Shown piece by piece: positions 3,679 to 11,385 of a stretch of 15,311 nt of DNA. Position 1 is the first letter of the stretch. Each line of letters opens with the position of its first letter. Position numbers and translations under genes: made by a program. The notes below the pieces were generated by a model. The model had not been told where the DNA came from. It worked only from the letters and a program-made list of their open reading frames with translations, and did not search any database. Source of the stretch: Escherichia coli (GTDB lineage Bacteria > Pseudomonadota > Gammaproteobacteria > Enterobacterales > Enterobacteriaceae); NCBI RefSeq assembly GCF_003334815.1, contig NZ_QOWO01000056.1. One strand, written 5' to 3'.

Positions 3679-4247
3679 TGTCTGTAGCCCTCCTTATCGT
3701 GATCAGGATGATGGTTTTCATTCTAATGGTGTAGTAGTTTCACGTCACGCGCACGTGCATATTCTTCGAAAGCTTCGGCGTTAGCCGGTCAACCAGGGGT
3801 TTGAGGCCCAACCGTACGAGATCGTACGCTAAGTTCATTTTTTGAGCAGAAGAGGTGAGTAAAGAAAACGAGGGTTTTGTTTACTCTTCCCGTCAATGCC
3901 AGTAGCCATGCGGTTTCAGGGACTTTCAGTGTTAATAAACTCGGTAATCAAATCAACGTAAACCTGCCTAACAACGCCACGACTTTATTGACTTAAAATC
4001 ATATAGTTAGCTTCTTAGCGTACGTTTCCGCTCCATTGGGCTTCAAACCCCACACCCAATGACATGAGAAAAGCTGGATCTGATTCTCAAAATGCTGGGA
4101 TACCCATCGAGATGGAGAACTCAGTCAATGTTCCATTCTTTCTGAAATATGTGTGGGGACACTGATCTGTCGGGAGCCGGATGCGGTAGTTCCGCAGGTC
4201 CGGTTCTGAGGAGGGGCCCGTCCGGGCAACCGGCGGGTCTACTCACC

Positions 4248-7468: not shown

Positions 7469-8267
7469 CGTTTACATCTCCAAAAAACTGAACGATCAGT
7501 GGCGCTACGGTCCTCTGATCCAGATTCATTGTTTTTGCTACGTATGAATCGGTATATCCCGCCCATACCCGGTTTTTCAGTCCTATTTGATCTGCAACCA
7601 ATACTGCGTTCTGATACATCGAACCTGTTTCCATTAAGGCCATCCGGTATCCTCTGTAGCGATATTTGAACAAAGCTTTTTCAAAAATAATGCAATAGAC
7701 GAGAGCAAAATGGGGTTTACCAAGACGTTCCGAATCCCCACCGGACAGGCTTCGGTAGAGTGACTGAGTATTACATGTAGCAACAGGTTCCAGTGCCTGA
7801 CTTAGCGGCAGGTAGTGATAAACATTAGTTCCTGCCTGCCAGTTTTCTGTATTTTCAGATAATCTGCATAAAAAAACTTCAATCGGGTACAATGCCCCCC
7901 CAGAAGGATAAGGTCTTCTTACAGAGCCAGGATCAGGTGAGCTGAATGCATTGACTAATAACTTTTCAATAGTACGAATGGAAAGTTTATTTTTGTCGCA
8001 AAAGTTTATTCCTGATGGGAGCCTTTCACGACTAAAATTATGTGATGAGGATATGTTTATTACGGAGCTGAAACCTGGCCTGAAGAGAACTTCTTTATTT
8101 TCAAATTTCTCCAGATGGGCAAGAGGTACCGCGGACACGAAAGTTCGTTCAGCAAATTCGGGGAGGGAAGCAAAGTTACCTCTGACATGAAAATCTTTAA
8201 CAATGGCCAGAACTTCAGGATCTGTGTAATGCGTTACTTCCACTAAAGAGAGTTCGTGTTTTGACAT
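7449..8267 (-). CDS. mcbC: Microcin B17 synthetase FMN-dependent dehydrogenase McbC, 272 aa
   Basis: Position and length match McbC; immediately follows mcbB with a 1-bp gap. Confidence 0.92.
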   Translation of the reverse strand: MSKHELSLVEVTHYTDPEVLAIVKDFHVRGNFASLPEFAERTFVSAVPLAHLEKFENKEVLFRPGFSSVINISSSHNFSRERLPSGINFCDKNKLSIRTIEKLLVNAFSSPDPGSVRRPYPSGGALYPIEVFLCRLSENTENWQAGTNVYHYLPLSQALEPVATCNTQSLYRSLSGGDSERLGKPHFALVYCIIFEKALFKYRYRGYRMALMETGSMYQNAVLVADQIGLKNRVWAGYTDSYVAKTMNLDQRTVAPLIVQFFGDVNDDKCLQ

Positions 8268-8268
8268 G

Positions 8269-9156
8269 TTATCTCTCCAGACAGCTGCAAGCCTGCCAGT
8301 GAATTACCGGCTCTTTACATAAAATACTGGTGATTAAATCAGCGCTAACAGATGACATAAAGTTATCGACATGACTTTTAACCAGTGAAGTACCTGTCAA
8401 CTCCTGAAGTCGCCGTTTTATTAAATGATAGCTGAATCCTCTTTCTGATTCGCCTAAAGCCAATGCTGGTAGTGTCATTTGGTATTTTTTCAGTAACTGA
8501 AGTAAGTTTGCCCAGGACATTTCGTTACGTCTGAAGCTTTTTTCTTCCCTGCTCAGCCATCTCTCTATATGACAAAAATGGCAGGGAGTACCAAGATCAG
8601 GTGAATATACTCCATCTATCCTGAATGACTCCTTTAGGTAGTAGCTTTGGATGAAGGCAACACCAGGGTTACTTTCAAATTTTGAATAGATTCTTTTTAC
8701 AATGTCTGAATGATAGTTTTCGAGATGTAACCAGATTAGTGTTGAATCGCTCACATTAATATTATTATCTTTTATATCAATGATATGAGAAACAAAAACA
8801 CCATCAGATTTCCATTGTTCCCGGGCATTACTGAAAAGATGTGGAACATCGCTTATTATGACTGAGTTTACCCAGAGAGGTGATGTTTTCGTTTTATTTA
8901 TCACGCCTGTGGTAATAAGAAACTCTTTGCCCTTGTCTTTATCAATAAGCGATTCGTCCAGTAGTTTATCAAGGAGGTATTCAGAAATAATACCCTGTTT
9001 GGATCGTAGGCTTTCGAGTACTTTTTTCATTCCCTCATGTGTAATGTCTACTGAAGAAATGTAGGTAATAAGCAGGGTCTTTGTATTTCTGGAAATTATC
9101 TCAAATGGCAGAATATTGATCATATCTTTTCCTTTTTTAATATCAGGGAGCACCAT
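8269..9156 (-). CDS. mcbB: Microcin B17 synthetase zinc-binding scaffold/cyclodehydratase subunit McbB, 295 aa
   Basis: Position and length match McbB; Cys/His clusters (..PCHFCHIERW.. and C-terminal ..HWQACSC..) are consistent with a zinc tetrad. Confidence 0.92.
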   Translation of the reverse strand: MVLPDIKKGKDMINILPFEIISRNTKTLLITYISSVDITHEGMKKVLESLRSKQGIISEYLLDKLLDESLIDKDKGKEFLITTGVINKTKTSPLWVNSVIISDVPHLFSNAREQWKSDGVFVSHIIDIKDNNINVSDSTLIWLHLENYHSDIVKRIYSKFESNPGVAFIQSYYLKESFRIDGVYSPDLGTPCHFCHIERWLSREEKSFRRNEMSWANLLQLLKKYQMTLPALALGESERGFSYHLIKRRLQELTGTSLVKSHVDNFMSSVSADLITSILCKEPVIHWQACSCLER

Positions 9157-9164
9157 GCTCCCTG
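9144..9164 (-). promoter_or_regulatory. Hairpin in the mcbA-mcbB intergenic region sequestering the mcbB Shine-Dalgarno, with the AUG in the loop
   Basis: Minus-strand RNA reads 5'-CAGGGAGC-AUGGU-GCUCCCUG-3': a perfect 8-bp stem whose 5' arm contains the AGGGAG ribosome-binding site, with the mcbB start codon in the 5-nt loop. Confidence 0.5.
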
Positions 9165-9182
9165 AACGGTTAATTCAACGTA

Positions 9183-9380
9183 TCAGATATGTGAACCACT
9201 TCCGCCGCTGCCACCGTTTCCACCACTACAACCGTTGCTGCAACCACCACAACCGCCACCTTGACCACCGCAGCTACCGCCGCCACCACCACCAATGCCA
9301 ACACCTAATGGAGACTGGCGTGATAATTTAAGAGCATCAACGGACAAAACTACACCAAATTCACTCGCTTTTAATTCCAT
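9183..9380 (-). CDS. mcbA: Microcin B17 precursor peptide McbA (65 aa in this copy)
   Basis: Translation MELKASEFGVVLSVDALKLSRQSPLG|VGIGGGGGGSCGGQGGGCGGCSNGCSGGNGGSGGSGSHI is the McbA leader plus Gly/Ser/Cys-rich core. Shine-Dalgarno AGGAG lies 5-6 nt upstream. Confidence 0.95.
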   Translation of the reverse strand: MELKASEFGVVLSVDALKLSRQSPLGVGIGGGGGGSCGGQGGGCGGCSNGCSGGNGGSGGSGSHI

Positions 9381-9600
9381 AAGGACTCCTTTTTTAAGGG
9401 AAATTAATGCTTATGACATCTGAATAGTATGTTGGCCAACACTAGTTACTTGCCGTAATTAACTATATTTTGCAATGATAATTTGAACTAAATTTGTACG
9501 CCTGTTAAATATTTAATAATAATATCAGTTGGTTATGTTTGTGTGGTTATTGTTTTTTTACAAAAATTAATATTGTGTTTACATTTTGCTTTCAGTTGCT
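9381..9600 (-). promoter_or_regulatory. Putative mcb operon promoter region (Pmcb)
   Basis: About 220 bp of very AT-rich non-coding DNA directly upstream of mcbA. The mcb operon is known to be driven by a stationary-phase, OmpR-dependent promoter upstream of mcbA. Exact -35/-10 not assigned. Confidence 0.45.
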
Positions 9601-9635
9601 GTCAGGATGTCACACTACCCCTTTAAGCCCCCACT

Positions 9636-9834
9636 GGTCTGGCAGGGCCGGGGGTGGGTAAGGTGAAACCTGTCAATCAGTACCGGCTTACGCCGGTATC
9701 ATATGCAACAACTGAGTGCCGCCTTCCATGCCGCTGGTGCGGCATATCCTGGTGACGATATCTGAATTGTTATAGATATGTATATACGTAGTAATGACAA
9801 GAATAGGATAAGTTAAAAATTTACAGGAGATGCA
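9636..9834 (+). repeat. Copy 2 of the diverged ~200-bp direct repeat, upstream of the small membrane protein gene
   Basis: See copy 1. Conserved hairpins CCGGCTTACGCCGG and ATGCCGC-NNNN-GCGGCAT (loop TGAA in copy 1, TGGT in copy 2, stem identical). Confidence 0.7.
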
Positions 9835-10658: not shown

Positions 10659-11031
10659 ATCAGAGGTAGGTCTGTGAATACGGTAGGTGTACAGAAATCG
10701 ACTGCCGGGGATCGATTTCCAGGGCCGCCCGGTATTCTGCGTCAGTGATATCACCTTTTTTTCAGTAAATAACCGAGAGCATCGTTTCCCAGCCCTGACA
10801 GTATGCGTATTCTGGCGACCCGGACTGGCAAATAACCCATCAAAAACGTTATTGCCAGACATTGCGAACTCACCAATTTTGATTATTGGAGCCACTTTTT
10901 CATAAGTTCCGTGAAATTATTTCATAATAACGACCATGTTTATTTTATGTAATGACTGGCAATAAAATAACTTGATTAAGTTCCCTTTATCCAGCCTGAT
11001 AGTGGATAAAGGAAACTCAATCATAATTTAA

Positions 11032-11385
11032 TTAGTTTATTAACTTCATCGCATTCTTTTTTGTCTCCTCATCACTTTTTTGCTCCGATTGTGAAGAGGA
11101 CTGAATGATTGTTGAAGAATTTAAATCGGCCATCTCTTTTGGAAATAGCGATCTCAATATATTCACGATATCTGAAAATGTGGTTTCTTTCGTCAGCAAT
11201 TCACATAAAAGGAAAGGGGCCCTGGGATCTTGTCTGTATAAGGCCAGACCTGCCGTCAGTGCAGCCCGGTTAAGGCGGCTGCGTTCCCCTTGCGGGATAC
11301 TGTCCAGTGTATCACAAACAATTTTATCTGTTTGATTTACATCTGGATTTAGCTTAAAGGCAATGGTTCTGCGCTTGTCCATCAT
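11032..11385 (-). CDS. parR: Plasmid partition centromere-binding adaptor ParR (StbB), 117 aa
   Basis: Translation [50 protein letters not shown].. is recognised as R1/R100-type ParR; TAATG stop/start overlap with parM. Confidence 0.9.
   Translation of the reverse strand: MMDKRRTIAFKLNPDVNQTDKIVCDTLDSIPQGERSRLNRAALTAGLALYRQDPRAPFLLCELLTKETTFSDIVNILRSLFPKEMADLNSSTIIQSSSQSEQKSDEETKKNAMKLIN

Follow-up and report, generated by a model that had tools for sequence, protein, structure and literature searches.

A conserved RNA hairpin downstream of the microcin B17 precursor gene mcbA as a candidate 3'-end element

Hairpins follow the lantibiotic structural genes nisA, epiA, and spaS. Intercistronic 3'-stabilisers, such as the malE-malF REP hairpins of E. 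coli and the pufBA hairpins of Rhodobacter, keep 3'-to-5' exonucleases off the upstream segment once the mRNA has been cleaved further down, and the cistrons are thereby expressed unequally; a U-tract is not required for this. At the replicase start of phage MS2, a translational operator hairpin sequesters both the Shine-Dalgarno sequence and the AUG. The precursor genes at the head of RiPP operons commonly have imperfect terminators or attenuators behind them (PMC7113386). In the microcin C operon, the hairpin between mccA and mccB leads to a short transcript that is both abundant and very stable, with read-through as a minor product (Zukher et al., 2014, PMC4231749), and in the streptolysin S operon only some of the sagA transcripts read through into sagB (PMC2765633).

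We analyzed the mcb operon on the minus strand of a 15.3-kb stretch of E. coli DNA (hereafter, the window). Like mcb, the mcc operon is a plasmid-borne enterobacterial microcin operon with a hairpin between a tiny precursor gene and the first modification gene, and for mcc the pair of transcripts produced at the hairpin is documented to set the substrate-to-enzyme ratio; the mcc and mcb hairpins share no sequence similarity. The closest biosynthetic relative is the sagA-sagB junction of streptolysin S, a TOMM like microcin B17, where the precursor gene likewise comes first and is followed by a stem-loop with partial read-through. The features of the mcbA-mcbB junction in the window are as follows:

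9183..9380, minus strand: mcbA, the microcin B17 precursor gene, 65 aa, with its TGA stop at 9185..9183 (from the list of open reading frames)
9166..9182, minus strand: single-stranded linker of 17 nt between the mcbA stop and the hairpin (from the sequence and the 19-locus comparison)
9143..9165, minus strand: intercistronic RNA hairpin UCAGGGAGCA-UGG-UGCUCCCUGA (5' arm 9165..9156, loop 9155..9153, 3' arm 9152..9143)
9158..9163, minus strand: Shine-Dalgarno-like AGGGAG in the 5' arm (fully paired upon folding, P(unpaired) 0.000)
9154..9156, minus strand: AUG at the hairpin tip, where the 295-aa form of McbB begins, probably not the physiological start
9124..9142, minus strand: mcbB leader, A/U-rich and unstructured, with AAGGA at 9134..9130 (from the sequence and folding)
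8269..9123, minus strand: mcbB, 284 aa, with its ATG at 9123..9121 (from RefSeq, homologue lengths, TIGR04424, and N-terminal alignment)

On the near-identical plasmid NZ_CP049848.1, the same mcbA gene is annotated as microcin B17 family TOMM. Its glycine linker is 4 residues shorter than that of the classic 69-aa form of McbA, with 6 linker glycines in the window (Gly tract at ~9270-9290, minus strand) versus 10 in the classic form. Matches of a 581-nt query on other plasmids span 584, 589-590, 593, 596, or 599 nt, and given these varied lengths the (GGN)n tract of mcbA appears to be length-polymorphic in nature. The McbB encoded here carries Ser at residues 117 and 277 (295-aa numbering), both of which are Cys in the PDB sequence; Ser117 agrees with the re-sequenced pMccB17 (PMC10912980).

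The stop codon of mcbA is separated by a 26-nt spacer from the ATG of the 295-aa mcbB reading frame (9156..9154), a distance reported by an earlier reading of this locus from the sequence alone (the sequence-only reading) and confirmed here from the coordinates. An inverted-repeat search and folding revealed at this junction a hairpin of 10 perfect pairs with a 3-nt loop, starting 17 nt past the mcbA stop and ending 19 nt ahead of the mcbB AUG at 9123. The sequence-only reading had described a perfect 8-bp stem at 9144..9164; the palindrome CAGGGAGC/GCTCCCTG is real, although the stem is actually 10 bp long, with one more pair at each end and a shorter loop. Of the loop AUG, the A is paired and the UG lies within the loop. 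The hairpin has a folding energy of -17.6 kcal/mol (z = -5.55 relative to dinucleotide shuffles) and remains the dominant fold in the 101-nt and 401-nt contexts; folding of the junction, which had been suggested as a check on the structure, thus upheld it. The window contains a single perfect inverted repeat of at least 10 bp with a 3- to 8-nt loop, compared to 0.1 expected from block shuffles. The hairpin is among the approximately six most stable 29-nt folds of the 30,566 windows folded, and it is the only one of these located inside the AT-rich (40%-GC) mcb operon. Further local hairpins of high stability (-18 to -21 kcal/mol per 29-nt fold) were observed at 4213, 12597, 12806, and 14215, mostly in the GC-rich right-hand part of the 15.3-kb stretch. 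In addition, an inverted repeat with 21-nt arms of 90% complementarity and a 9-nt gap (10973-11023) lies immediately 3' of the minus-strand stbB/parR-like gene (11032-11385) and may represent a terminator or partition-site element.

A search of the Rfam 15 database yielded no family at the gathering score, with below-threshold matches to isrP (19.2 bits vs 45, E = 0.4) and SCARNA7 (E = 0.92), and the mcb literature searched mentions no hairpin, stem-loop, terminator, or intergenic element for the mcbA-mcbB junction. Two further candidates were considered and rejected. A repeated or mobile element is at odds with the matches of a covariance model of the motif, which occur once in the window and, in the related loci, at the junction only. 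A long-range helix around the hairpin (CAUAUCU/AGAUAUG), which would pair the AUG at 9123, is not kept in the Klebsiella lineage and is absent from the 115-nt folds.

We compared 19 non-redundant mcb-like junctions collected from plasmid records, GTDB genomes, and contigs with graded McbB homologues (82% to 42% identity). A stable hairpin was found between the precursor stop and mcbB in all 19 loci, across McbB identities of 42-100% and with energies of -12 to -22 kcal/mol; the conservation in other mcb-like clusters by which the sequence-only reading proposed to judge the stem was thereby established. In each of the 19 loci the hairpin lies on the sense strand, directly 3' of the precursor gene and ahead of the first modification gene. 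Wobble and compensatory changes occur among the stems, which sort into at least nine classes by sequence:

E. coli type: UCAGGG[AG]G[CU]A-UGG-[UC]GC[UC]CCCUGA
Pantoea type: CAGGGGGC[UC]-CAA/AAA/AGU-GGCUCCCUG
L015 (unclassified Salmonella): GUCAGGGAGCA-UCU-UGCUCUCUGAC
L016: UGCCAGGGC-AACAAGAUG-GCCCUGGCA
L021: CGAACUAAGGGGG-GAUG-UCCCCUUAGUUCG
Rahnella and L017: AGGCUAAGGACG-CUCAUU-CGUCCUUAGCCU
L022: CUUACAGGGACAU-UAGA-AUGUCCCUGUAAG
Mixta: GGGGGCGG-CGG-CCGCCCCC
L019 and L020: two further stems

The observed energy was reached by 0 of 100 spacer shuffles in 15 of 17 loci, and mcbB coding segments of equal length had a mean of approximately -5 kcal/mol. Among the 11 alignable hairpins, 97.3% of the cells pair in the standard register versus 44-50% when the partner is slid by 1-3 columns. 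Half of the pairs (5/10) are variable in this set: one stem pair is A-U in 4 hairpins, G.U in 6, and G-C in 1, and the top stem pair is A-U in 7, C-G in 2, U.G in 1, and mismatched in 1. The core C-AGGG...CCCU-G is common to most stem classes, which fits their common descent, and we infer that the classes have changed via wobble intermediates. Because the distant hairpins are beyond the reach of the covariance model, which was built from the alignable set, we count them as conserved in position and structure and claim no alignable homology for them. Taken as a whole, the comparison argues for a stable stem-loop maintained by selection, a property that we used to define a RiPP precursor-proximal hairpin.

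The element is also a perfect 10-3-10 palindrome at the DNA level, and it might accordingly be read as an operator of a dimeric regulator, a cruciform, a recombination site, or a functionless chance repeat, the more so as the 8-bp version first described would be expected approximately twice per window by chance. Chance is ruled out by the presence of the hairpin in 19/19 loci. Substitutions keep G.U pairing on the sense strand only and leave A-C mismatches in the fold of the complementary strand, and the occurrence of unrelated palindromes at the same position in other lineages is a poor fit to a specific protein-binding site. In most lineages the sense strand is more stable than the antisense strand owing to the G.U pairs (-18.4 vs -12.6 kcal/mol in Klebsiella). 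This strand bias argues for an RNA structure formed by the mcb transcript over a DNA palindrome, and we consider a DNA-level or chance origin extremely improbable.

The distance from the precursor stop to the stem is 10-27 nt in 19/19 loci, and that from the end of the hairpin to the mcbB AUG is 17-28 nt in 18/19 loci. None of the Pantoea-group, Rahnella, Mixta, and other non-E. coli-type hairpins examined overlaps the mcbB Shine-Dalgarno sequence or AUG. In L015, the hairpin is located 27 nt past the precursor stop, with mcbB a further 238 nt on. The lack of overlap with the mcbB start, together with the L015 hairpin staying by its precursor gene, indicates that the element is tied to the 3' end of the precursor gene and not to the mcbB ribosome-binding site. 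The precursor of L015 (AAYPMC010000051.1) is a divergent 62-aa peptide, and the ~240 nt between its hairpin and mcbB (within 460-690) are best read as an insertion in this lineage. The constant spacing of the hairpin and the mcbB AUG in the other 18 loci could instead reflect a role at the mcbB ribosome-binding site.

A constant geometry would also be expected of a translational insulator, in which the hairpin would stop ribosomes leaving the heavily translated mcbA from sliding and re-initiating at mcbB, so that McbB would need slower de novo initiation. The stem is placed just beyond the footprint of a terminating ribosome, its end precedes the mcbB AUG by a nearly uniform distance, and the remaining junctions of the operon are tightly coupled, with mcbB and mcbC separated by 1 nt. 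However, a longer spacer alone would do the same, and the hairpin is kept in L015, where mcbB is so far off that coupling is no issue. We consider an insulator unlikely.

The loop AUG gives the 295-aa McbB that is found in UniProt, GenBank, and the PDB entries 6GOS, 6GRG, 6GRH, and 6GRI and is also used in the literature (PMC10912980). RefSeq instead calls McbB as a 284-aa protein from the next in-frame ATG, at 9123, which corresponds to Met12 of the longer form. In the protein collection, the principal E. coli cluster (P0001) has 294 aa, as would be obtained if the GTG second codon were taken as the start.

Starting from the loop AUG, the sequence-only reading took the 5' arm for the mcbB Shine-Dalgarno sequence and suggested that the hairpin throttles McbB translation. 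Such a hairpin would sequester AGGGAG and the start codon and limit McbB initiation directly. As in the MS2-type operator, a Shine-Dalgarno-like purine run forms part of the 5' arm, and the hairpin is topped by an AUG. The AGGGAG motif forms a duplex of -7.4 kcal/mol with the anti-Shine-Dalgarno sequence and is fully paired within the stem, the opening of the -20..+10 region of the loop AUG costs 20.8 kcal/mol, and in the E. coli lineage the loop AUG is in frame with mcbB. However, the gap between the end of AGGGAG and the loop AUG is 0-1 nt (AGGGAG-C-AUG), compared to a functional Shine-Dalgarno spacing of about 4-9 nt, and the motif is therefore too close for a Shine-Dalgarno interaction. 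The AUG at 9123 has AAGGA 6 nt ahead of it, and its ribosome-binding site lies outside the hairpin and is single-stranded and accessible upon folding, with an opening cost of 3.3 kcal/mol for the same region.

The reading frame of the loop AUG is not kept outside the E. coli lineage. In Klebsiella, Edwardsiella, Kosakonia, Tenebrionibacter, Erwinia, and Salmonella, it is separated from the downstream AUG by 32 nt, not 33, and is therefore out of frame with mcbB in these six genera, as it is in every non-E. coli lineage that has a loop AUG. In the E. coli plasmids CP057501.1 and LR890664.1 (L023 and L024), A5 replaces the A6 run of the mcbB leader (9138..9133, minus strand), which puts the loop AUG out of frame as well; the A5 may be a true polymorphism or may stem from a sequencing error in the homopolymer. 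In the 19-locus comparison, most stem classes have no AUG inside the hairpin, and the loop AUG is absent from the Pantoea, Rahnella, Mixta, P0037, and P0038 lineages. Almost all full-length McbB homologues have annotated lengths of 283-286 aa, and it is with Met12 of the 295-aa reading frame that their N-termini align; positions 1-286 of the curated TIGR04424 profile match residues 13-294 of the same frame. Based on these comparisons, McbB probably starts at Met12 (ATG 9123), 33 bases downstream of the usual annotation; the 284-aa RefSeq call is probably right, and the 11 extra residues of the 295-aa form are probably not part of the natural protein. The mcb literature searched yielded no protein-level determination of the McbB N-terminus. 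In contrast to the MS2-type operator, the loop AUG of mcb is thus most likely unused and stands 1 nt from the purine run, and neither feature is conserved in orthologous clusters. Direct occlusion of the McbB start, on which the throttling of translation depended, appears quite unlikely.

A coding constraint on the loop-AUG frame was rejected as well. Substitutions in the 3' arm would be non-synonymous in this frame, which is broken in most lineages, and the constraint is therefore structural, not coding. Nor was an upstream reading frame that ends on the mcbB AUG accepted as a sign of selection, because the Leu-Asn or Ile-Asn codons of mcbB by themselves create the overlapping TGA. Nearly all hairpins retain the Shine-Dalgarno-like AGGG core in the 5' arm, and the AUG stands at the tip in E. 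coli-type lineages. The two elements might form a structured stand-by or decoy site, at which a stem melted, for example, by ribosomes finishing mcbA would load a 30S subunit, leading to translation of a 12-codon upstream reading frame ending on the mcbB AUG or, in E. coli, of a 295-aa McbB isoform beside the 284-aa one; McbB would then be coupled to McbA synthesis. We regard this arrangement as very improbable. In plasmid CP042359.1 of Rahnella aquatilis (2450-2500), the hairpin's 3' arm, UCCUUAGC, could pair either with the 5' arm or with the mcbB Shine-Dalgarno region GCUAAGGA, 9 nt downstream, the two pairings being mutually exclusive. Such an alternative was rejected as a general feature, since the 3' arm can reach the true mcbB Shine-Dalgarno sequence in this way in Rahnella and cannot do so in E. 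coli.

With its GC-rich stem and short loop (3-8 nt), the hairpin has the first part of an intrinsic (Rho-independent) terminator. A U-rich tract immediately 3' of the stem is absent in the window, where the tail UAUUAAAAAAGG has a T-weight of 1.82, and a terminator scan of 8200-9700 returned 0 sites. Across the 19 loci, the tails are A/U-rich and form the unstructured mcbB leader; their T-weights range from 0.05 to 3.1, with values below 3 in 18/19 tails and many below 1.1 (0.20 in Rahnella and 0.05 in L021). Based on the scan and on the poor tail scores in nearly all lineages, a canonical intrinsic terminator was rejected, and termination survives only in a leaky or non-canonical form. As a leaky attenuator, the hairpin would cause RNA polymerase to pause and terminate in a fraction of rounds, leaving fewer mcbBCD transcripts with no processing needed. 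Attenuation of this kind is documented for mccA-mccB (PMC4231749), for the read-through at sagA-sagB (PMC2765633), and more generally (PMC7113386). At mcb it would be served by the GC-rich stem, by the 8 nt after the stem that are all A/U in E. coli (UAUUAAAA), and by the UUUU or UUU that follows the Pantoea-group hairpins (T-weights 2.4-3.1). Against it, selected termination should keep the U-tract at least as well as the stem, contrary to the scores obtained for most tails. The known attenuators also differ from mcb in this respect. The mcc element has been demonstrated to be an intrinsic terminator, and its activity hinges on ribosomes binding to mccA; a canonical U-tract is missing from the mcb hairpin in at least 18 of the 19 lineages. 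The sag and lantibiotic attenuators are Gram-positive, U-tract-bearing imperfect terminators, whereas the mcb tail is A-rich and also serves as leader for the gene that follows. A leaky attenuator is thus a possible but doubtful account of the mcb hairpin.

Since the hairpin lacks a canonical U-tract and no terminator was found in the scan, a 3'-end-protecting role is favoured. With moderate confidence, we propose that the hairpin is a 3'-end element of mcbA, which would mark and protect a short mcbA-only mRNA and thereby favour substrate over enzyme. In this proposal, the 3' end would be made by endonucleolytic cleavage in the downstream A/U-rich stretch, followed by 3'-exonuclease trimming to the stem. 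The A/U-rich mcbB leader (9124..9142) is a candidate site for such processing, and by its composition it may be cleaved by RNase E. Alternatively, the 3' end would originate from weak termination at the hairpin; as no lineage has a canonical U-tract, any such termination must be inefficient or non-canonical. The 10-bp GC-rich stem would then block 3'-to-5' exonucleases, and mcbA mRNA would outlast or outnumber mcbBCD mRNA, providing more substrate than enzyme. McbB would be translated from the downstream AUG (9123, Met12), the AAGGA site being left single-stranded.

The location of the hairpin directly after mcbA and ahead of mcbB fits the need to keep the precursor in excess over the synthetase, as the sequence-only reading had supposed. 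Its further suggestion of an RNA-processing or stability determinant corresponds to the role favoured here, in which the short stable mcbA transcript, the origin of its 3' end, and the processing are what we infer from the junction. The mcb hairpin resembles the REP and pufBA stabilisers as a stable stem-loop between cistrons, with processing at mcb being a proposal; the REP elements occur as dispersed repeats, in contrast to the mcb hairpin, of which the window has a single copy. Protection of the mcbA 3' end would match the documented logic of RiPP operons (PMC7113386, PMC4231749, PMC2765633). By analogy, the mcb element probably works like the precursor-proximal hairpins of other RiPP operons, while lacking both the U-tract of a canonical terminator and the usable Shine-Dalgarno sequence and AUG of a translational operator.

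Among thiazole/oxazole-modified peptides, microcin B17 has served as the founding model, and wide use is made of its operon in heterologous production and engineering. Should the ratio of precursor to synthetase be set by the hairpin, yields would change upon its deletion or upon cloning of mcbB from the "textbook" ATG inside it. On the comparative evidence, the McbB numbering in UniProt, PDB 6GOS, and the literature (295 aa) includes 11 residues that probably do not belong to the natural protein. Finally, a hairpin without a U-tract that is present across a whole gene-cluster family offers a test case for whether the "attenuators" of RiPP operons act by termination or by 3'-end protection.
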